DNA from: a bacterium
GTDB taxonomy: Bacteria > Patescibacteriota > 4484-211 > GCA-002791395
Assembly (NCBI GenBank): GCA_027002475.1
Contig: JALWZS010000001.1
Coordinates: 1 to 31,651 of the forward strand
Direction: 5' to 3'
Length of the DNA stretch: 31,651 nucleotides
Shown here: piece by piece, positions 2,234 through 29,055 of the stretch
How positions within the stretch are numbered: position 1 is the stretch's first letter
How the letters are laid out: each line of letters starts with the position of its first letter
The notes under the pieces: generated by a model
The model's input: the letters and a program-made list of their open reading frames with translations, nothing else
What the model was told of the DNA's origin: nothing
The model's database searches: none
Translations under genes and position numbers: made by a program

Positions 2234-2315
2234 ATGTTTGTGGCGTCTTATTGCGGGTAAGAATCAAAAGCCATTGGACTGCCACGCTTCGCTCGCAGTG
2301 CCGTGGAATAATAAG

Positions 2316-17189: not shown

Positions 17190-18075
17190 GAGTAACTGGG
17201 TAAAGATTGTAGCGATTACTACTCTTATTGCGATTGTTCTTGTTGCCATAGTTTCTTTTTATGGATGGTATAAACTGCATGAGCTTTTGCATGTACACAT
17301 TGCTCCAGGAGACAAAACACCAAGCGATTACGGGCTAACTTACGAAGGTTACAGTTTTAAGTCTCTTGATGACATAGATCTTGCAGCTTGGTATGTTCCA
17401 GTAGAAAATCCTAAAGCAGTTATTATTATTGCACATGGCTATAACGATTCTGGGAAAGTTGAGTTTTTACCGTACGCGAGATTCTTACACGATAATGGCT
17501 ATGCTTCTTTTCTTTTAGACCTTCGGGCATTTGGTTATAGCAGTGGCAACCAAGTTAGTATTGGAACTAAAGAGTGGCAAGATGTGGTGGCTGCGTATGA
17601 CTTTGTGCGAGATAACTTAGTTGACTCCAATGTGTCTGTGGGGTTTTTAGGTAAATCGCTAGGTGCTGCAACGGTTGTTATAGCTAATGGATACACGGGT
17701 AAAGGGGACTTTGTGATTGCTGAGGTCCCTTATGCACATTTTGTGGGATTGTTTGAACCACAAATGAAGGAGCGAGGATACTCAGCTGTTCTTATGCCGT
17801 TTTTAAAGATTGCAATGTATTTTGAACTAGGCTTTGGTTACACAAAGTTTGAGCCAATCAAAATGGCAAAGAATATAACGGTGCCGCTTTTGGCAATTAG
17901 TGCGCAGTACGATGAGTCTGTATATCCAACAGATGCAAAGGAAATATACGAGACTGCTAAAGGAGAGAAAGTGTATTGGTTTGCACCATCTGGACATAAC
18001 GTTTACATAGATCTATCAGAAGAGTATAAAAACAAAGTAACAGATTTCCTTGATACGTACGTTGCAAAAGATTGA
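17182..18075 (+). CDS. Alpha/beta-fold hydrolase with an N-terminal TM anchor
   Basis: IIIAHGYNDSG and GKSLGAA. The 8-nt ATGATTAA overlap with the preceding gene places the two in one operon. Confidence 0.7.
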   Translation: MIKSNWVKIVAITTLIAIVLVAIVSFYGWYKLHELLHVHIAPGDKTPSDYGLTYEGYSFKSLDDIDLAAWYVPVENPKAVIIIAHGYNDSGKVEFLPYARFLHDNGYASFLLDLRAFGYSSGNQVSIGTKEWQDVVAAYDFVRDNLVDSNVSVGFLGKSLGAATVVIANGYTGKGDFVIAEVPYAHFVGLFEPQMKERGYSAVLMPFLKIAMYFELGFGYTKFEPIKMAKNITVPLLAISAQYDESVYPTDAKEIYETAKGEKVYWFAPSGHNVYIDLSEEYKNKVTDFLDTYVAKD

Positions 18076-18179
18076 TCCATTTTAAAGCTTTGCGCCAACA
18101 CGTTTGGGGCTATAGGGTATAATTGATCCAACTTAGAACCTTTTCATTTTTTCTGCTTCTCTCACTAAGGAGGTGAGAA

Positions 18180-19109
18180 ATGTGGCTTGTAGTCATTGTA
18201 ACTCTAGTCCTCCTTGTGGGAGGACTTTTGGGTAGCGCATGGTTTCTTTTGCGTTACCTGATTTACGGGGAGTGGAGAGGAGGCCGCTGGTCTCCCAAAG
18301 ACTTTGGGCTCGATGGGGAATGGATTGAGTTCAAGTCTTTGGATGGTAGCATAATCCACTCCTATCGGGTCTCTCCTGATGAGCCCACTGCCTGGGTTGT
18401 GATAGCCCACGGTTTTAACCCCACCGGCGGCTTTGTGGGTGCGGCTGAATTTTGGCCGTATGCCAAAAAGTTCGTTGGTGCCGGGTACGGGGTTCTGGTC
18501 TTAGACCTACCCGGCTTTGGGCTATCTCCTCGGCGCGCTCGAGGATACCGTCTTGGTTTCCTCGAGTGGTGGGACGCAGTTGCTGCGTATGAGTTCTTGC
18601 GATTTGAGCTTAAGATCGACTTGCCGGTTGGTCTTTTTGCTAAATCGGCTGGAACTCCAGCAGCTATCATTGCCGCTGCCCAAGGATGTGCTGACTTTGT
18701 AGTGTTAGAGTCAGCAATTGCATCCTTTCGGTCGCTCATGGTTGCGCAGTTGCAGTACCATGGGCTACCGCGGATGCTCGCGCTCCCGTTGGCAGCAGTG
18801 TTGGATCTTGTTTGGCGATATGGGTTTAATCACAGCGGGGTGATTGACCCAATAGATGTCGCCCGCGGGATTGGCGTTCCAATCCTCTTCCTTCGGGGTG
18901 GTCAAGATCCTGAGGTCCTGGAAGAGGACACGGTTTTCCTTGCTGAGGAAATTGGGCGCTTGGCAACTGTGAGGTACTTTGCAGCTGCTGGGCACAACAT
19001 CCTCAGACTCAATGGGGAGCCGGCGCACCTCATTAATAAGGAGGAGGCGAAAAAGGCATGGGCGGATACCTTTGCCTTTTTAAGAAACGTAACAACTGGG
19101 AGGCGGTAG
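18180..19109 (+). CDS. Alpha/beta-fold hydrolase, a high-GC paralogue of 17182..18075
   Basis: VVIAHGFNPTGG and AKSAGTPAA are homologous to the neighbouring gene, but GC is about 53-60% and the sequence is rich in Arg, Ala, Gly and Trp. It has a perfect SD (AAGGAGGTGAGAAATG) and a GGGTATAAT -10-like element upstream. Confidence 0.8.
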   Translation: MWLVVIVTLVLLVGGLLGSAWFLLRYLIYGEWRGGRWSPKDFGLDGEWIEFKSLDGSIIHSYRVSPDEPTAWVVIAHGFNPTGGFVGAAEFWPYAKKFVGAGYGVLVLDLPGFGLSPRRARGYRLGFLEWWDAVAAYEFLRFELKIDLPVGLFAKSAGTPAAIIAAAQGCADFVVLESAIASFRSLMVAQLQYHGLPRMLALPLAAVLDLVWRYGFNHSGVIDPIDVARGIGVPILFLRGGQDPEVLEEDTVFLAEEIGRLATVRYFAAAGHNILRLNGEPAHLINKEEAKKAWADTFAFLRNVTTGRR

Positions 19110-19121
19110 CTGCCGCCTCCC
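19098..19121. terminator. GC-rich hairpin shared by convergent genes
   Basis: GGGAGGCGG-tagctg-CCGCCTCCC. It contains the stop codons of both the +strand hydrolase and the -strand rlmD-like gene. Confidence 0.45.
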
Positions 19122-20452
19122 TAGCAAATTCTAGGGATTTCTCTGTTCTTTTTTGTTAGTAAAGTTACTAGTTCTACATGAGGAGTATGTGGAAACATAT
19201 CAATGCCTCGCATCTTTTTTACTTCGTATATTTTCTGTAATGTCTGCATATCACGACTAAAGTTTTTAAAGTTGCAGGAGACATATATAAGGTTATCGGG
19301 TTGAAGAGTTACGAGTTGTGAGAGTGCAGTTTTACGAAGACCTGAGCGAGGTGGGTCAAGAATTACTAAATTTGGATTTAACTCACTCCAATCATAATCT
19401 TCGCTTGGCATAGCAATAAAAGTTGCATTTGTGTTGTTGAGTTTATTGTTTTCTTTCGCATCTTCAATTGCATCTTTAACGATTTCTACTCCAATTGTGT
19501 TGGCGTTAAACTTATCGGCAAGCGGAATGGTGAAAAAGCCGCTGCCGGAATATAGATCGAGGATGGTGATGGGGGTAGTGGGTTGGAGAGTTGTAGTGTT
19601 GGAGTGTTGGGGACTTGGAGAGTTGGAAAGTTGGAGTGTTTCGGGGAGATCGTTTCGTTGATTCTCGCCTCGCGATGACGTGGCTGTATCGGATGGATTT
19701 GTGGATTTGTCATTGCGAGCGAAGCGTGGCAATCTTATTGCCGTTTCGGCGAATTCTAAAACGGTATCCATTAAAAGTTTTGCCGCGTGAGAGTTAGTTT
19801 GAAAAAAAGCGTTGGGCGTTATTTTATATTTGTAACCGTTTATCTCCTCAATAATATAACCCTTTCCCAAGATTATATGAACTTCTCCGCCATGAGAAAC
19901 GTCAGATGTGGTTTTGTTGATTGAGTGGATCAGGGTTGCGAGTATAGAGTTACGGGTTACGAGTTTAGATAAGTTGGATAATGCTTTTGTCAGTTGCTCG
20001 TTTTCGCTATCGTCTTTTGGTTGACTTGTTACGATTGTAATCATTGATTCGCCGGTAGTTGTTGTTCTAATTACTGCGTAGCGAAGCAAGCCATGGTGAT
20101 ATTTTCTATCAAAAAAAGTTAGTCCTGCGTTTTGTGCCCAATCTCTTACGATATGAAAAAGCTCTTCTATTTTTTCATCAGAGATAAAACATGTGTGATT
20201 ATCAATAACTCGCCACCATTTTCCTTTTTGCCGCAATCCTACGCGTCCTTCAAAATCAATAACAAAGTCCATACGGTTTCGGTAGTGACTAGTCTTAGGA
20301 GAGGGGAGTATTTCTTTTAGTTGTAGGTCAAGTTTATGCAATTTAAAGCTAAAGTTTATTTCATTGACCTTCTGCTGGAGTTGCTTTTCGTATGGAATAT
20401 GAGACCAGCTACAAGAGCCGCATACTTCTTTGTTTGGACATAAACTTTGCAT
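19121..20452 (-). CDS. rlmD: RumA/RlmD-family RNA (uracil-5-)-methyltransferase with an internal low-complexity insertion
   Basis: N-terminal Cys cluster CPNKEVCGSCSW, SAM motif ILDLYSGSGFF, and VILDPPRSGL and YVSCNF catalytic motifs. About 60 aa of repeat-derived sequence sit between the central and methyltransferase domains. Confidence 0.75.
   Translation of the reverse strand: MQSLCPNKEVCGSCSWSHIPYEKQLQQKVNEINFSFKLHKLDLQLKEILPSPKTSHYRNRMDFVIDFEGRVGLRQKGKWWRVIDNHTCFISDEKIEELFHIVRDWAQNAGLTFFDRKYHHGLLRYAVIRTTTTGESMITIVTSQPKDDSENEQLTKALSNLSKLVTRNSILATLIHSINKTTSDVSHGGEVHIILGKGYIIEEINGYKYKITPNAFFQTNSHAAKLLMDTVLEFAETAIRLPRFARNDKSTNPSDTATSSRGENQRNDLPETLQLSNSPSPQHSNTTTLQPTTPITILDLYSGSGFFTIPLADKFNANTIGVEIVKDAIEDAKENNKLNNTNATFIAMPSEDYDWSELNPNLVILDPPRSGLRKTALSQLVTLQPDNLIYVSCNFKNFSRDMQTLQKIYEVKKMRGIDMFPHTPHVELVTLLTKKNREIPRIC
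19560..19745. repeat. Intragenic GC-rich repeat insertion in the rlmD-like gene
   Basis: Tandem GTTGGAG-type low-complexity tract (19581-19640) plus the element GTCATTGCGAGCGAAGCGTGGCAATC (19709-19734). The same motif recurs in truB. Confidence 0.6.
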
Positions 20453-24878: not shown

Positions 24879-25730
24879 ATGATTACTGCGCTTTATAAAC
24901 CCTTGGGAATTTCTACGCATTCCTTTGTAAAAAAGTACGGAGATTTATTGGGTCAAAAAGTTACGCATACAGGTTCACTAGATCCCATGGCTGAAGGGAT
25001 TGTAGTAGTGCTTACTGGAGATGACAGGTTTAAAAAGGAATTACTTAGCGATGTTGAGAAAGAGTATGAGTTCGAAATTTTATTAGGCTTCAAAACTGAT
25101 TCATGGGATTTGTTGGGATTAGTTGAAGGGGTTGAGCGTTTAAGAGTTAGAGAGTTGAAGAGTAGGCGAGTTAGAGAGTTGGAGGGTGTGTTGCCTGAGT
25201 TTGTGGGAACGTATGAGCAGGTAATTCCAAAGTTTTCTGCAAAAAGAATAAATGGGGAAAGCTATTTTGATAAAGCTAAAAGAGGGGAGATCTGGGAGCA
25301 AGGGGTGCAAAGTGTTAGTGTCAAAGAGTTGCAAGTTTTAGAGAGTTGGCAGGTTGGCATGTACAGCTTGCAGGAAGAAATTCTTTCTAGGATTAGTAAG
25401 GTCAGAGGAGACTTTAGACAAGAAGAGATTATAAAGAGATGGGGTGACGTCATTGCGAGGAGCAAAGCGACGTGGCAATCTAGCGAAGATGGGAATAATG
25501 TGGATTGCCACGAGAGTTCCGCGCACATCTCTGCCAATGACGTTTGTGTAATTGTGAAACTGCGAGCTGTTACTTCAAAACGATTTTATATTCGGGGATT
25601 GGTACGTGATATTTCTAACAAAACTAATCTTCCGATGACGACTTTTTCTATAAAGCGGATAAGACATGGTGATTACTCAATTGATAATTTAAGTGCAAGT
25701 ACTAATGACAACTTGGGTAAAGAATTGTAA
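24879..25730 (+). CDS. truB: tRNA pseudouridine(55) synthase TruB with a repeat-derived internal insertion
   Basis: HTGSLDPMAEGIVVV contains the catalytic Asp. The insertion includes VIARSKATWQSSEDG... Confidence 0.75.
   Translation: MITALYKPLGISTHSFVKKYGDLLGQKVTHTGSLDPMAEGIVVVLTGDDRFKKELLSDVEKEYEFEILLGFKTDSWDLLGLVEGVERLRVRELKSRRVRELEGVLPEFVGTYEQVIPKFSAKRINGESYFDKAKRGEIWEQGVQSVSVKELQVLESWQVGMYSLQEEILSRISKVRGDFRQEEIIKRWGDVIARSKATWQSSEDGNNVDCHESSAHISANDVCVIVKLRAVTSKRFYIRGLVRDISNKTNLPMTTFSIKRIRHGDYSIDNLSASTNDNLGKEL
25449..25541. repeat. Imperfect palindromic element inside truB
   Basis: Left arm GTCATTGCGAGGAGCAAAGCGACGTGGCAATC and right arm GATTGCCACGAGAGTTCCGCGCACATCTCTGCCAATGAC are inverted at their ends. 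The tandem GAGTTAGAGAGTTG(A/G)AG copies at 25144-25186 belong to the same gene. Confidence 0.6.
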
Positions 25731-25739
25731 AATAGAAAC

Positions 25740-26036
25740 GTGACTCTTGAAGAAATAAAGAAAGCTTTAGGTCCTGATACGAAATGGGATGCGTTTGAGT
25801 CATCCATAAGTAGGAATTTCAAGTTTGAAAACAAAAACGAAGCGCACGAGTTTATGGCACGGGTGGGTGAAGTTTCAGAACGATACCATAATAAGTCTGA
25901 TTTATTTGTACAAAGCTACAATAATATTAAAGTGTTACTTACAACTGAGGCGATAAGTGACGTAACTATGCAGGATATCGAGATATCAAGGCGAATTGAC
26001 GAGATTTATGACGATATAGTTTCGAAAAGGGGGTGA
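25740..26036 (+). CDS. Pterin-4a-carbinolamine dehydratase (PCD/DCoH-like)
   Basis: FENKNEAHEFMARVGEVSERYHNKSD and LLTTEAISDVTMQD fit the PCD family. GTG start. Confidence 0.65.
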   Translation: MTLEEIKKALGPDTKWDAFESSISRNFKFENKNEAHEFMARVGEVSERYHNKSDLFVQSYNNIKVLLTTEAISDVTMQDIEISRRIDEIYDDIVSKRG

Positions 26037-26042
26037 TAAAAA

Positions 26043-26462
26043 GTGGAAGAAGAAAAGACTTTAAACGAAGAGGCAAAGGAGGCTCAGCCACAACAAGAGC
26101 AAACCGCAGAGCAGGCTAGCGGAACTGCTACGCCAGCGGCTACACCAAATGCAAAGACCGGTAAGAACACAGGTATGGCAATAGTTGCGTACTTTTTGTT
26201 CTTTGTACCGATGCTAACAGGTGATTTGAAGGATCCATTTGTAAAGTTCCATACTAACCAGGCATTGGTGCTATTCATAGTTGATGTTGTTGCATGGATT
26301 CTAGGGATAATATTTAGTGCTGTTACGTTAGGCCTAGGAGCACTTTTGATGCCACTTATTTGGTTATTCATATTTGTTCTTTGGGTTATGGGTATTATCA
26401 ATGCGGCTAAGGGTGATATGAAACCATTACCGCTTATTGGAGGAATTACTATCCTAAAGTAA
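26043..26462 (+). CDS. DUF4870-like small membrane protein
   Basis: A disordered N-terminus, then DPFVKFHTNQALVLFI and TM helices. GTG start preceded by GGGGGTGA. Confidence 0.6.
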   Translation: MEEEKTLNEEAKEAQPQQEQTAEQASGTATPAATPNAKTGKNTGMAIVAYFLFFVPMLTGDLKDPFVKFHTNQALVLFIVDVVAWILGIIFSAVTLGLGALLMPLIWLFIFVLWVMGIINAAKGDMKPLPLIGGITILK

Positions 26463-26477
26463 GAACAGCAACTGACT

Positions 26478-26535
26478 AAGAGCGGGGATCGTGAGTCTAT
26501 ACTGTTGTATAGATAGGGTGAACCGCTCTTTTCTT
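26478..26535 (+). terminator. Compound hairpin with a T-tract downstream of the DUF4870 gene
   Basis: Outer stem AAGAGCGG/CCGCTCTT encloses an inner hairpin CTATAC-TGTT-GTATAG and is followed by TTCTT. Confidence 0.4.
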
Positions 26536-26540
26536 ATGGA

Positions 26541-26571
26541 TAAAAGAAAAGGGGCACCCGGTTAGACCGGG
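26541..26571 (-). terminator. Rho-independent terminator for the high-GC SPFH gene
   Basis: 6-bp GC stem CCCGGT/ACCGGG with a 3-nt loop. On the minus strand it is followed by TTTTCTTTT, 24 nt past the stop codon. Confidence 0.6.
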
Positions 26572-26594
26572 CACCCCACGCAACAGTAGGAGAC

Positions 26595-27836
26595 TTAAGG
26601 GGTTGGTTGTGGAGTCGGCGTTGAGGTGGGTAGCGCTTGCTGGAAGAAAAACGGCGGTTGCGCCCCGGCTTCATTCGTGAAAAGTGTGCTGGGCACATCC
26701 CCTTGCCAACGCTGAATGGCTTCGTAAGTGAGAATGTTGGGGTCCGATGCGATTTGCTGGCGGATTAGCTCCAGGGCTTTAGCATCAGCTTGTGCCCTTA
26801 AAATCCGCGCCTGGCTATCGCCTTCGGCCTTCAAAATCTCTGCCTTCTTTTGCGCTTCAGCGGCGGCCACCTTGGCCTTGCCTTCATTGGCGGCTTTTTC
26901 TTCGAGCTGGGCCGCGATCTCTACGTCCATTTGAGCGGCCTCGAGCTGCAGCCGTTTCTCGGCTTGGGTTTTCAGCTGCGCCTCGAATTCCGGTGAGTAG
27001 TTGAAGAAACTGATAGCAACATCAGTAACTTCAACCAGGCCGCCAAGCTTTGCTTGCAGCTCGGTCTTGATCTCATCCTGAGCTTCTTTCTTGTGCACGC
27101 CAAAGTAATCATATGGATGTGCACCTGAAACTGATTTGACCGCATTGATAGCGGCTTCTTTGACCAGGACCTTTTCGTAATCAGGCCCATATCGCAAGTC
27201 AAGGAGCTTCATGGATTCGATTGGGACTGAGAGCTGCGTTAGCTCAAGCTCTTTACCTTCCTCGACGGGCAGTCGGAACCAAATCACAACATCCGGGTAA
27301 ATCTCCGGTCGACCAGTTGTGTTGGTGTCCGCTTGGATGTCGTAGATCTTCATTGGGCGAATCCGTGTCGTGTAGCGATTCACTCGAGACACGAACGGTG
27401 TTGCCCAGTGGGTTCCAGGACCAACAACTCGGTATCCAACGTTTGGGAACGACTGTCGGATGACGCCGACATTCGTTGGGGTCACGACCTGCAGCCCCGC
27501 GAAGAACAGATACCCGGCAATGCCCACCATCGCGAACACCTTTGCCCAGCGGTGGCGGCTTTTCGAGCCAGCTTCGGGGTATCCTTCGAGGAACAGATCG
27601 TAGTAACCCCAAACAAGTGAGACCAGAATGATTAGCAACATGACCCCCTGCAATGCGTCTGGCCATGCAAAGGCGCTGCCGTCATCCTGGAACTCAAAGG
27701 TAGTGGTGACCGTCTCTCGGTCGACTGGCACTGCTTTCCCTGCTTCTGGTGTGGGGGTTGCTGGTGCACATGCCATTAAGGCGGTGGCGAGCAAACCGAC
27801 AACAAGGATGAGCAGGACAATTTTTCGAAGTTTCAT
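26595..27836 (-). CDS. SPFH/Band 7 family protein (lipoprotein-like N-terminus), in a high-GC insert
   Basis: LLATALMAC lipobox-like signal, an SPFH core and a long Ala/Glu/Lys coiled coil. GC is about 55-58%, against about 38% in the flanks. Perfect SD GGAGGT. Confidence 0.75.
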   Translation of the reverse strand: MKLRKIVLLILVVGLLATALMACAPATPTPEAGKAVPVDRETVTTTFEFQDDGSAFAWPDALQGVMLLIILVSLVWGYYDLFLEGYPEAGSKSRHRWAKVFAMVGIAGYLFFAGLQVVTPTNVGVIRQSFPNVGYRVVGPGTHWATPFVSRVNRYTTRIRPMKIYDIQADTNTTGRPEIYPDVVIWFRLPVEEGKELELTQLSVPIESMKLLDLRYGPDYEKVLVKEAAINAVKSVSGAHPYDYFGVHKKEAQDEIKTELQAKLGGLVEVTDVAISFFNYSPEFEAQLKTQAEKRLQLEAAQMDVEIAAQLEEKAANEGKAKVAAAEAQKKAEILKAEGDSQARILRAQADAKALELIRQQIASDPNILTYEAIQRWQGDVPSTLFTNEAGAQPPFFFQQALPTSTPTPQPTP

Positions 27837-27884
27837 TGTTTTACCTCCAAAAGAGTGAAAAGAGTTGGTTTCATTGAGCAGTCT

Positions 27885-27934
27885 CCTTACTGCTACTGCA
27901 AAAACACGTAAATGTTCTTACAGTAGCAGTAGGG
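27885..27934. repeat. 14-bp inverted repeat just upstream of the high-GC SPFH gene
   Basis: CCTTACTGCTACTG ... CAGTAGCAGTAGGG with 13/14 complementarity and a 22-nt spacer. Confidence 0.4.
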
Positions 27935-28185
27935 AGGGTAACGGTAAGTGTAATGTGCGTTTGGGACAGCGTCGCTGGGGATTATACTGTAAAACATACG
28001 TTTCTGCAATAAATTGAGTAGGTGCTACTGTTACTTTTTATATGCCGATATATTTTTTATATCAACAATGTAAGATTTATACCATGCCCCAGGCGGAATG
28101 TCAACCTTATATTTTTAATATATCTGCAAGCTGGATATTGCTTGATTTATGCACAAATTATCAACATGTGGTATATAATATTTAT

Positions 28186-29055
28186 ATGAGGTTACGTGCT
28201 GCCCTAACTAAATTTATTAAGGAATTAGAAAATTTGAATTATCCAGAAACAACAATTCGTGGGTATGCGACTGATATAAAGCAATTCATTGAGTTTTTGC
28301 AGGATTTTAATGTAGAGGATATATCTACAGTTTCCCCAAAACATGCAGAATTATTTATTGAACGACTAGAGTCGGAAAATTATGCTCCCCGAAGTATCTC
28401 CAGGAAAATAAATGCGCTTAAGTTATTTGATAATTTTTTGTACGGGCAGGGGCTTATTAACGACCATTTTGCAAATGAGTTAAAACATCCTGAACAGGAA
28501 CAAAGAGAATTAAGAATTCTTTCAAGTGATGAGCTTGCAAAACTGCGTGAAGTTGTTGTAAACGATCTAAAGTATAGGGCGATTATAGAAACTTTGCTTC
28601 AAACCGGCATGGGAATAAGTGAGCTTGCTGGTCTTACTATCGATGATGTAGTTTTGGTTCCTGGTCCAAAATTTGGTGAGGTTCATATTCGAAACCGTAC
28701 TGGGCAGCGAGTTGTCCCAATAAATAATGCAATGGAAAAAGTGCTTGAGGAGTACTTAGAAATTCGTCCAGAATCTGAATCAAGGGCTCTTTTTGTTACT
28801 AAAAACGGCAAGCCTTTGCTTGAAAGAAATATTAGGAGAAAACTCAAAGAGTATTTTAAAAAGGCTGGAATTAATAATGTTATGGTGAATGATTTAAGGA
28901 ATACATTTATTGCCAATCAGCTAATGAAAGGAGTTTCTATCGGTAGAGTTGCATACCTTGTTGGCTATAAAAACATTAGCTCGCTAAACAAGTTTGTTAA
29001 AGCATTGGGAGATAAAATTAAAACACCTGACTACGGAGTGATTGAAGAAGTCTAG
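28186..29055 (+). CDS. Tyrosine-recombinase (phage integrase)-like protein, probably catalytically degenerate
   Basis: It has an N-terminal SAM-like core-binding domain and a C-terminal fold alignable to XerD, but the canonical Arg I, His II, His III and Tyr positions read G, N, Y and F. Only Arg II (DLR) is retained. Confidence 0.65.
   Translation: MRLRAALTKFIKELENLNYPETTIRGYATDIKQFIEFLQDFNVEDISTVSPKHAELFIERLESENYAPRSISRKINALKLFDNFLYGQGLINDHFANELKHPEQEQRELRILSSDELAKLREVVVNDLKYRAIIETLLQTGMGISELAGLTIDDVVLVPGPKFGEVHIRNRTGQRVVPINNAMEKVLEEYLEIRPESESRALFVTKNGKPLLERNIRRKLKEYFKKAGINNVMVNDLRNTFIANQLMKGVSIGRVAYLVGYKNISSLNKFVKALGDKIKTPDYGVIEEV

Follow-up and report, generated by a model that had tools for sequence, protein, structure and literature searches.

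An in-frame CGTC-tagged palindromic repeat in truB of a candidate phyla radiation bacterium and the association of its family with small GIY-YIG nuclease genes

What kind of repeat can occupy part of the gene for an RNA-modification enzyme while the reading frame stays open, and what might move it? This question is raised by a palindromic stretch at positions 25448–25542 of a 31,651-nt segment of bacterial DNA (contig JALWZS010000001.1, assembly GCA_027002475.1; hereafter the window, meaning this segment at its full length, with positions numbered from its first base), which lies inside a truB open reading frame (ORF) of a member of the candidate phyla radiation (CPR). The initial annotation of the locus, made from the sequence alone, described this stretch as the second copy of a palindromic element, resembling a MITE (miniature inverted-repeat transposable element), that had also entered an rlmD-like gene. 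Our analysis indicates that the stretch is very probably an outward-tagged inverted pair of oriented hairpin units that lies in frame within a variable linker at the TruB surface, adding a 31-residue, largely disordered loop and leaving the core of the protein intact.

The palindrome and its host protein

The element is 95 nt long and comprises a 33-nt unit, a spacer and a degenerate inverted unit. The left unit (25448–25480, plus strand) begins with the tag CGTC (25448–25451), continues with an outer stem formed by ATTGC (25452–25456) and GCAAT (25475–25479) around the inner part GAG-GAGCAAAGCGAC-GTG, and ends with a closing C (25480); the tail that follows the left stem reads C-TA, and the unit encodes the peptide VIARSKATWQS. 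Beyond the 22-nt spacer TAGCGAAGATGGGAATAATGTG (25481–25502), the right unit (25503–25542, minus strand) has the layout CGTC-ATTGG-CAG...CGT-GGCAAT-C, with its minus-strand CGTC tag at 25539–25542, and encodes DCHESSAHISAND. The arms are unequal in length (33 vs 40 nt); when aligned with each other, they are identical at the ends (CGTCATTG and CGTGGCAATC) and diverged in the middle. Two perfect inverted repeats are nested in the element, an outer one (ACGTCATTG, 25447–25455, and CAATGACGT, 25535–25543) and an inner one (CGTGGCAATC, 25471–25480, and GATTGCCACG, 25503–25512). All this bears out the original description of GTCATTGCGAGGAGCAAAGCGACGTGGCAATC at 25449–25480 with an inverted partner ending in CAATGAC at 25541, and of arms that are alike at their termini and differ midway. 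The hexamer TGACGT is present at both ends of the element, where it is part of the inverted repeat, and no separable target-site duplication is found. The predicted RNA fold of the element has an energy of −36.8 kcal/mol (z = −3.0; 2 of 200 shuffled sequences were equally stable) and the predicted DNA fold −19.9 kcal/mol (z = −2.9). The label "frame-tolerant" that the element had been given holds insofar as four of the six reading frames are open through it; it fails at the tag end, where the CAA-TGA-C frame closes one frame in each orientation.

The truB ORF (24879–25730, plus strand) that hosts the insertion encodes a protein of 283 amino acids (aa) that contains the TruB catalytic domain without a PUA domain. 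The product matches the Pfam family TruB_N (E = 4.4e-24), and the top Foldseek matches of its predicted structure are the TruB structures 2ab4 and 1k8w (E ~1e-17). The best named relatives come from candidate division WWE3 and other CPR bacteria, and the 440 homologues collected are mostly 241–260 aa long; the C-terminal PUA domain is missing in the TruB proteins of this CPR clade. Alignment of the window protein with 115 homologues (116 sequences) shows where it is unusual: the segment from W188 to S233 comprises 44 aa, vs a median of 21 in the 115 homologues (range 18–27 in 114 of them), the single long-linker outlier, denoted P0094, having 51 aa. The palindromic element was found at the linker position in none of the 115, the closest homologue (56–60% identity) included, which supports the earlier view that this is not native TruB sequence. 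The element corresponds to 31 codons (aa 191–221, VIARSKATWQSSEDGNNVDCHESSAHISAND), in frame and free of stops, with a net gain of ~23 aa; the initial estimate of about 50 residues relative to canonical TruB was too high and had included a different insertion shared by the clade. Indeed, residues 160–225 of the window protein align to only about 6 residues of Thermotoga TruB, and the bulk of this length difference is a clade-conserved helical insertion, not the palindromic element. This helical insertion, of ~40 aa (aa 161–201, V-x-G-D-F-R-Q-x-E-I...W), is absent from the TruB of Thermotoga and E. coli, and its residues G177, F179, R180, Q181 and W188 show little or no variation.

An AlphaFold2 model built on the 116-sequence alignment has a mean predicted local distance difference test score (pLDDT) of 91, and its only weak stretch spans aa ~196–221, where successive blocks score 74, 54 and 51 and the values drop below 50 at aa 209–215. 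In the model, the first arm of the palindrome extends the helix formed by residues 181–201, and residues 202–221 are coil up to the strand 222–232; the proposal that the insert is tolerated in a loop thus agrees with the prediction, in which the insert is modelled as low-confidence coil and the rest of TruB is confident. The columns that are invariant across the 116 sequences, including D35, Y63 and R180, are all kept in the window protein. Judging from the model, then, the window TruB looks like an intact enzyme with an extra floppy loop, and we infer that it is still active in the source bacterium. The outlier P0094, from another metagenome (L204:601–1461), carries extra sequence in both variable regions of TruB, and its palindromes are small and different: CCTGCCTGC/GCAGGCAGG, CCGAC-TTTT-GTCGG and TTTTGCGGT/ACCGCAAAA. 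The occurrence of these extra palindromes in the same two regions therefore marks the regions and suggests that they are generally permissive sites for palindrome insertion.

A dispersed family of hairpin units and the GIY-YIG genes near them

Other copies of the unit were sought in 48.7 kb read from the 79.5-kb metagenome scaffold that contains the window (ENA ERZ23491050). At least six loci with at least ten units were detected, and four of the six loci are intergenic. The second genic locus is an ORF for an rlmD/RumA-like methyltransferase (19121–20452, minus strand), which carries a 60-aa in-frame insertion (19565–19744, minus strand; aa 237–296; translation TAIRLPRFARNDK...) directly before S-adenosylmethionine-binding motif I. 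Residues 10–236 and 297–432 of this protein align to residues 86–290 and 294–424 of the Pyrococcus abyssi structure 2jjq; aa 237–296 are identified as an insertion because they have no counterpart in 2jjq. The insertion, which encodes TAIRLPRFARNDKSTNPSDTATSSRGENQRNDLPETLQLSNSPSPQHSNTTTLQPTTPIT, consists of an 8-nt tandem array and a pair of units with tags facing inward: the forward unit GTCATTGCGAGCGAAGCGTGGCAATC (19709–19734, plus strand; tag TGTC at 19708–19711) and a degenerate one (19660–19679, minus strand; tag CGTC). The truB palindrome is, accordingly, a second copy of the element, as originally recognized. That two RNA-modification enzymes were hit carries no statistical weight, four of the six loci being intergenic; still, REP and RPE insertions into truB are on record from other bacteria (PMC3733652).

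The intergenic copies show several arrangements. A lone degenerate unit, GGCACTGCGAGCGAAGCGTGGCAGTC (2277–2302, minus strand), lies in the spacer between the genes for the small and large subunits of a NiFe-hydrogenase, the start of the latter being called at position 2316. In the upstream extension of the contig, there is a single unit at −2801 relative to the window and a cluster at −1930 to −1776 (units at −1930, −1848 and −1813) in the sufC-sufB spacer. Just past the window, an inverted unit dimer occupies 32016–32105 (L202:12106–12195) at the pyk-pgk junction. The pgk ORF as called (477 aa) begins 5' of this dimer and reads through it (VPHVIARNLLHKFCGNLIDKRSPRTCFASTRGDE...); because the canonical N-terminus of PGK (KLRTIRDFDF) starts ~50 codons beyond the called start, the annotated N-terminal extension is probably false. 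Among the contig copies, the inner hairpins vary in sequence while the pairing is kept (GAATTTAT-TGC-ATAAATTC, TGCTTGC-AAA-GCAAGTA, TACTAAC-GAA-GTTAGTA).

To delineate the family, we scanned other genomes, one per species, with the exact pattern GTCATTGCGAG-N6-14-GTGGCAATC. The units recovered share the consensus YGTC-ATTGC-GAG-[variable inner hairpin]-CGT-GGCAAT-C, hereinafter the ATTGCGAG subfamily, and occur in at least 120 stretches (829 kb of loci) from Gamma-, Alpha- and Deltaproteobacteria, Dehalococcoidia (Chloroflexota), Oscillospiraceae (Firmicutes), Bacteroidota and Planctomycetota; further host groups among the matches listed, the set to which the counts in the rest of this paragraph also apply, are Nitrospirota, Rickettsiales, Melainabacteria, Atribacterota and several CPR groups. 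The claim that the element is a dispersed repeat thus holds both within the contig and across many phyla. The unit is 24–36 nt long. Its 5-bp outer stem, ATTGC...GCAAT in all units, is followed inwards by an internal loop with conserved GAG/CGT and then by an inner hairpin that varies in length; the centres, of 10–24 nt, hold many different hairpins (CCGAAGG, GCCACGAAGTGGC, GGCCTTTAGGCC) with compensatory inner stems. Of 210 units, 95% have C or T immediately ahead of GTC, and the closing C is followed by C/T in 97% and then by C/A in 84%; GTC and the closing C themselves were part of the search patterns, which makes their conservation throughout the family a consequence of the search. Of 276 distinct units, 97% fold better on the forward strand than on the complementary one, an advantage that depends on G-U/G-T pairs. 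The commonest layout is the one seen in truB, namely, a plus-strand unit, a spacer of 10–50 nt and a minus-strand unit; single units and opposite arrangements also occur. A literature search with the raw element sequence returned only primers.

Two recurrent settings of the units deserve mention. In L013, L014, L026 and L116 (Planctomycetota, Deltaproteobacteria, Sphingopyxis and Bacteroidota), units adjoin carA and/or carB, seemingly within the carA-carB spacer or close to it. In L044:545–975, L050:739–1529, L193 and L112, units alternate in long arrays at constant distances (57/14 nt, for example, in an Azoarcus metagenome-assembled genome), and these arrays give rise to long spurious ORFs in several frames.

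Evidence on what might act on these units comes from their gene neighbourhoods. When ORFs near the units were clustered across at least 120 loci, the sole recurrent mobile-type gene among the matches listed was one for a GIY-YIG protein of ~95 aa. The 829 kb contain four GIY-YIG genes, each of them no more than 71 nt away from a unit; 5.4% of the bases lie within 100 nt of a unit. An independent test employed 80 metagenome loci picked by GIY-YIG similarity alone. A ATTGCGAG unit was present within 150 nt of the GIY-YIG gene in 35 of these loci, and the unit density was 3.27 per kb near the gene vs 0.096 per kb beyond 500 nt (34-fold); some CGTC-type unit was found in 73 of the 80, at 6.7 vs 0.215 per kb (31-fold). 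The commonest layout, in 32 loci, is unit(+)-ORF-unit(−), in which the downstream unit follows the stop codon at a median distance of 7 nt, so that in these gene-carrying versions the GIY-YIG ORF stands at the spacer position between the units. The unit-flanked proteins, of 95–98 aa, match Pfam GIY-YIG only, and NCBIfam has no name for them. CPR genomes that encode such proteins include Microgenomates, Berkelbacteria, Levybacteria and Daviesbacteria, and in a Woesebacteria locus (L092) the GIY-YIG gene (L092:1716–2009) adjoins an exact copy of the rlmD unit. The association between such genes and units, seen here family-wide, has already been published, in 2025 (PMC11893778).

Known relatives and rival explanations

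Among the closest described counterparts of the truB element are the CGTC-tagged repetitive extragenic palindromes (REPs), a superfamily with an unpaired CGTC (or TGTC/CCTC) tag, A-T pairs at stem positions 1–2, the tail consensus CCA and, in the four described families, a stem of 8–9 bp with a 4–5-nt loop (Di Nocera, De Gregorio & Rocco 2013, PMC3733652). These repeats come mainly as inverted dimers, often heterodimers, with spacers of ~20–100 bp and many dispersed copies; they are known from 5 phyla, mostly Alphaproteobacteria, and include Neisseria dRS3 (CGTC-1) and Rickettsia RPE-6 and RPE-4 (CGTC-1 and CGTC-4) (PMC3733652). Some lie in frame within genes, where dimers encode 20–30 aa, and the host genes named include truB of S. 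maltophilia, E. litoralis and S. alaskensis (PMC3733652). The truB units share with this superfamily the unpaired CGTC tag on both strands (TGTC in the rlmD unit), the A-T pairs that start the stem of both the truB and rlmD units, the short tail of C, then C/T, then C/A, the inverted dimer with a 22-nt spacer and unequal arms, and the multiplicity of copies on the contig. Moreover, back-translation of the CGTC-3 peptide VIAGLDPAIH gives GTCATTGCC...GGCAATCCA, with the same outer stem as in the truB element. Judged by these sequence traits, the truB palindrome fits the CGTC-tagged REP superfamily, as a repeat comparable in kind to Neisseria dRS3/NTS and Rickettsia RPE-4/-6, although the fit is incomplete; it is from a CPR bacterium, and the described traits place it at the level of the superfamily.

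A second parallel is with the Rickettsia palindromic elements (RPEs), one of which, RPE-1, is carried by truB of R. conorii (Ogata et al. 2000, as cited in PMC3733652). Here the likeness is of kind, not of family: RPE-1 too is a palindromic repeat that lies in frame in housekeeping genes, truB among them, and is tolerated in the protein. It is, however, longer, about 100–150 bp, and is not known to be related in sequence to the truB element.

The small GIY-YIG proteins resemble the Ssn family (cd10448, ~94-aa single-domain GIY-YIG proteins), which consists of site-specific nucleases of single-stranded DNA (ssDNA) (Chenal et al. 2025, PMC11893778). These enzymes bind the NTS hairpin (CGTCATTCCCGCGMAVGCGGGAATCYRG, which includes dRS3) solely as ssDNA and on one strand; SsnA recognizes this hairpin in ssDNA but not in RNA, and it requires the C that follows the palindrome for binding and the three bases ahead of the palindrome for cutting (PMC11893778). 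The ssn genes are typically flanked by the motifs, as in NTS-ssnA-NTS, and the published search sequence for Ssn-related motifs (SRM) is HGTCWYN(0-2)YYVSBRHN(0-5)WNVSBRGN(0-2)RNCYNB (PMC11893778). Both truB arms and the rlmD unit similarly have GTC before and C after the palindrome, the hairpin is strand-oriented, and across the family units flank genes for ~95-aa proteins with GIY-YIG as their sole Pfam domain, in the order unit-gene-unit. The settings differ: the Neisseria repeats form intergenic clusters near variable genes, whereas the truB copy is an in-frame insert. By analogy with the published Ssn biochemistry, the functional form of the unit would be a hairpin on ssDNA of the "forward" strand; a cognate small GIY-YIG nuclease of the Ssn type would bind the hairpin together with the following C and cleave the DNA upstream of the GTC tag, at a distance of a few bases. 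Versions that carry the gene would hold the nuclease ORF in the spacer, and the truB copy would be an empty, non-autonomous version. The route and time of arrival of the truB copy we infer rather than observe, and the cognate nuclease is presumably present in the source genome.

How do other explanations of the truB insert compare? The one proposed initially, a classical MITE, that is, an insertion sequence reduced by deletion, whose terminal inverted repeats a DDE transposase recognizes as double-stranded DNA and which is bordered by a target-site duplication, would account for the small size (95 nt), the inverted ends and the presence of several copies. Yet each of the two arms forms a hairpin of its own and shows the compensatory inner stems and strand asymmetry known from REP units; units also occur singly or in the opposite arrangement; the terminal TGACGT belongs to the inverted repeat and is not a separable duplication; and no transposase family recurs near units in the 829 kb of listed loci, the GIY-YIG gene alone doing so. 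The designation "MITE-like" is accordingly replaced here by oriented, self-folding, CGTC-tagged hairpins of the REP/REPIN type, and a true MITE appears highly improbable. The REPINs proper, inverted REP dimers with short spacers (PMC3733652), match the architecture of the truB element, and the parallel extends to a doublet that is the non-autonomous unit and to a single-copy enzyme gene flanked by repeats. They carry a GTAG tag, however, and are mobilized by RAYT, an HUH tyrosine transposase, as opposed to the YGTC tag (CGTC/TGTC) and GIY-YIG gene here; no RAYT-like ORF cluster was seen near units among the matches listed, and Di Nocera et al. saw no link between CGTC repeats and transposases (PMC3733652). 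We therefore regard a GTAG-type REPIN as scarcely credible.

It is also conceivable, though most unlikely, that the insert works at the RNA level, either as a hairpin in the truB mRNA that affects stability or pausing or serves as an RNase III site, or as a segment removed before translation. The predicted RNA hairpin is stable (z-score about −3), transcription of REPs is common and can influence what becomes of the mRNA (PMC3733652), and the G-U/G-T pairs on which forward-strand folding rests are possible in RNA too. Against this stand the reading frame that stays open through the insert, a length of 93 nt, far below that of known self-splicing introns, and the binding of the related hairpin by SsnA as ssDNA and not RNA (PMC11893778); a dimer, furthermore, puts one forward unit on each strand, which makes orientation relative to the gene uninformative. 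A search of the window against Rfam 15 gave no match at the gathering score and, at E ≤ 10 within 25300–25700, a single chance match to a snoRNA; ARAGORN found no tRNA or tmRNA. Finally, native TruB sequence that is palindromic by chance, or an assembly artefact that joined a repeat into truB, might be suspected from the variability of the linker, the length of the P0094 linker and the metagenomic origin of the assembly. We consider this barely plausible: the same 26–33-nt unit recurs at other places of the contig and across many phyla, the linkers of 114 of 115 homologues are 18–27 aa long and none contains the element, both flanks keep the truB frame exactly, with an insert length that is a multiple of three, and the long linker of P0094 holds different small palindromes.

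Several observations weigh against the interpretation of the truB insert as a CGTC-tagged hairpin pair served by an Ssn-type nuclease. Excision of the 31 codons would leave a linker ~8 aa shorter than those of the homologues, and the boundaries of the insertion are for this reason not exactly fixed; at the DNA level, an empty-site truB allele was not found, the nearest homologue (56–60% identity) being too divergent. The right arm is degenerate (ATTGG, with poor inner pairing) and may escape recognition by any enzyme, and the 8–9-bp stem and 4–5-nt loop of the described CGTC families do not occur in ATTGCGAG units. No GIY-YIG gene was detected in the part of the source contig that was read (48.7 kb). 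Ssn nucleases are not known to move such repeats, the role shown in Neisseria being the cutting of incoming ssDNA. The ATTGCGAG subfamily, moreover, lies outside the published motif definition because the SRM pattern, which matches the NTS control, matches neither the truB nor the rlmD units, none of 281 distinct ATTGCGAG units and no stretch of the 48.7 kb of contig; these units are accordingly no more than candidate members of the experimentally defined set of Ssn motifs.

Octamer arrays and significance of the repeats

Upstream of the palindrome, truB contains a second repeat, an octamer array at 25136–25191 (plus strand; GAGTTRGA-type, with a 24-nt duplication), of which the part at 25143–25191 encodes RVRELKSRRVRELEG. 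The tandem duplication reported initially is real: two copies of GAGTTAGAGAGTTG(A/G)AG lie at 25144–25160 and 25168–25184, and Tandem Repeats Finder detects, at 25143–25184, a period of 8 with 5.2 copies and 73% matches, along with a period of 16. The array adds ~3 aa (29 aa between G80 and G110 vs a median of 26 in the 115 homologues) within helix 90–108 of TruB, which is confidently predicted in the AlphaFold2 model. A search with 16-mers of the micro-repeat yielded 10 matches, vs 0.26 expected, all in two arrays. Arrays of the GAGTTGGA type are present at 19580–19640 (plus strand), inside the rlmD insertion and antisense to the gene, and outside the window, at −397 to −342 (L203:7892–7947, plus strand), in the sufB-sufS spacer. 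All three arrays are on the plus strand whatever the gene orientation, one being intergenic, one genic antisense and one genic sense; the plus strand has positive GC skew throughout the window. A candidate fourth array at 39254–39413 was rejected, being a Pro/Thr linker that does not belong to this repeat.

The original note had tied this micro-repeat to the palindromic element, and a composite element, in which octamer arrays travel with palindromic units, was considered and dropped: in 200 loci of foreign genomes, arrays with a period of 8 showed no enrichment close to units (3 near vs 9 far). Because period-8 arrays show no link to the units in other genomes, the octamer arrays are a second, separate, genome-specific repeat family and not part of the palindromic element.

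The base composition of the window is uneven, with a GC content of 0.49–0.51 at 18001–19000 and 26001–28000 vs a background of 0.37–0.43. The second GC island contains a second, divergent Band_7/SPFH gene (26595–27836, minus strand) next to a phage-integrase-type gene (28042–29055) and may have been acquired horizontally; a hairpin with 24-nt arms is located at 27883–27936.

In-frame palindromic repeats in housekeeping genes, such as the Rickettsia RPEs and intragenic REPs, are already known, and truB is on record as a host; in this respect, the finding is ordinary. What it adds is the extension of the phenomenon to a reduced, WWE3-like CPR genome, the recognition of a very widespread ATTGCGAG subfamily that escapes the SRM pattern, so that published counts of Ssn motifs may be too low, and the observation that the two TruB regions that take palindromes here take different palindromes in another lineage. 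For genome annotation, it is of practical importance that the units give rise to numerous small ORFs that are spurious (…LPRFARNDK…, …VIARSEATWQS…) and to N-terminal extensions that are false, as exemplified by the pgk call next to the window. A farther-reaching proposal, which we put forward as unlikely, is that the ATTGCGAG units constitute a distinct class of Ssn-type hairpins with their own clade of ssDNA nucleases active in the CPR, the in-frame copies in truB and rlmD being live cut sites and not tolerated junk. If this were true, live cut sites in core genes would shape which incoming ssDNA recombines there, in organisms that depend on DNA uptake.

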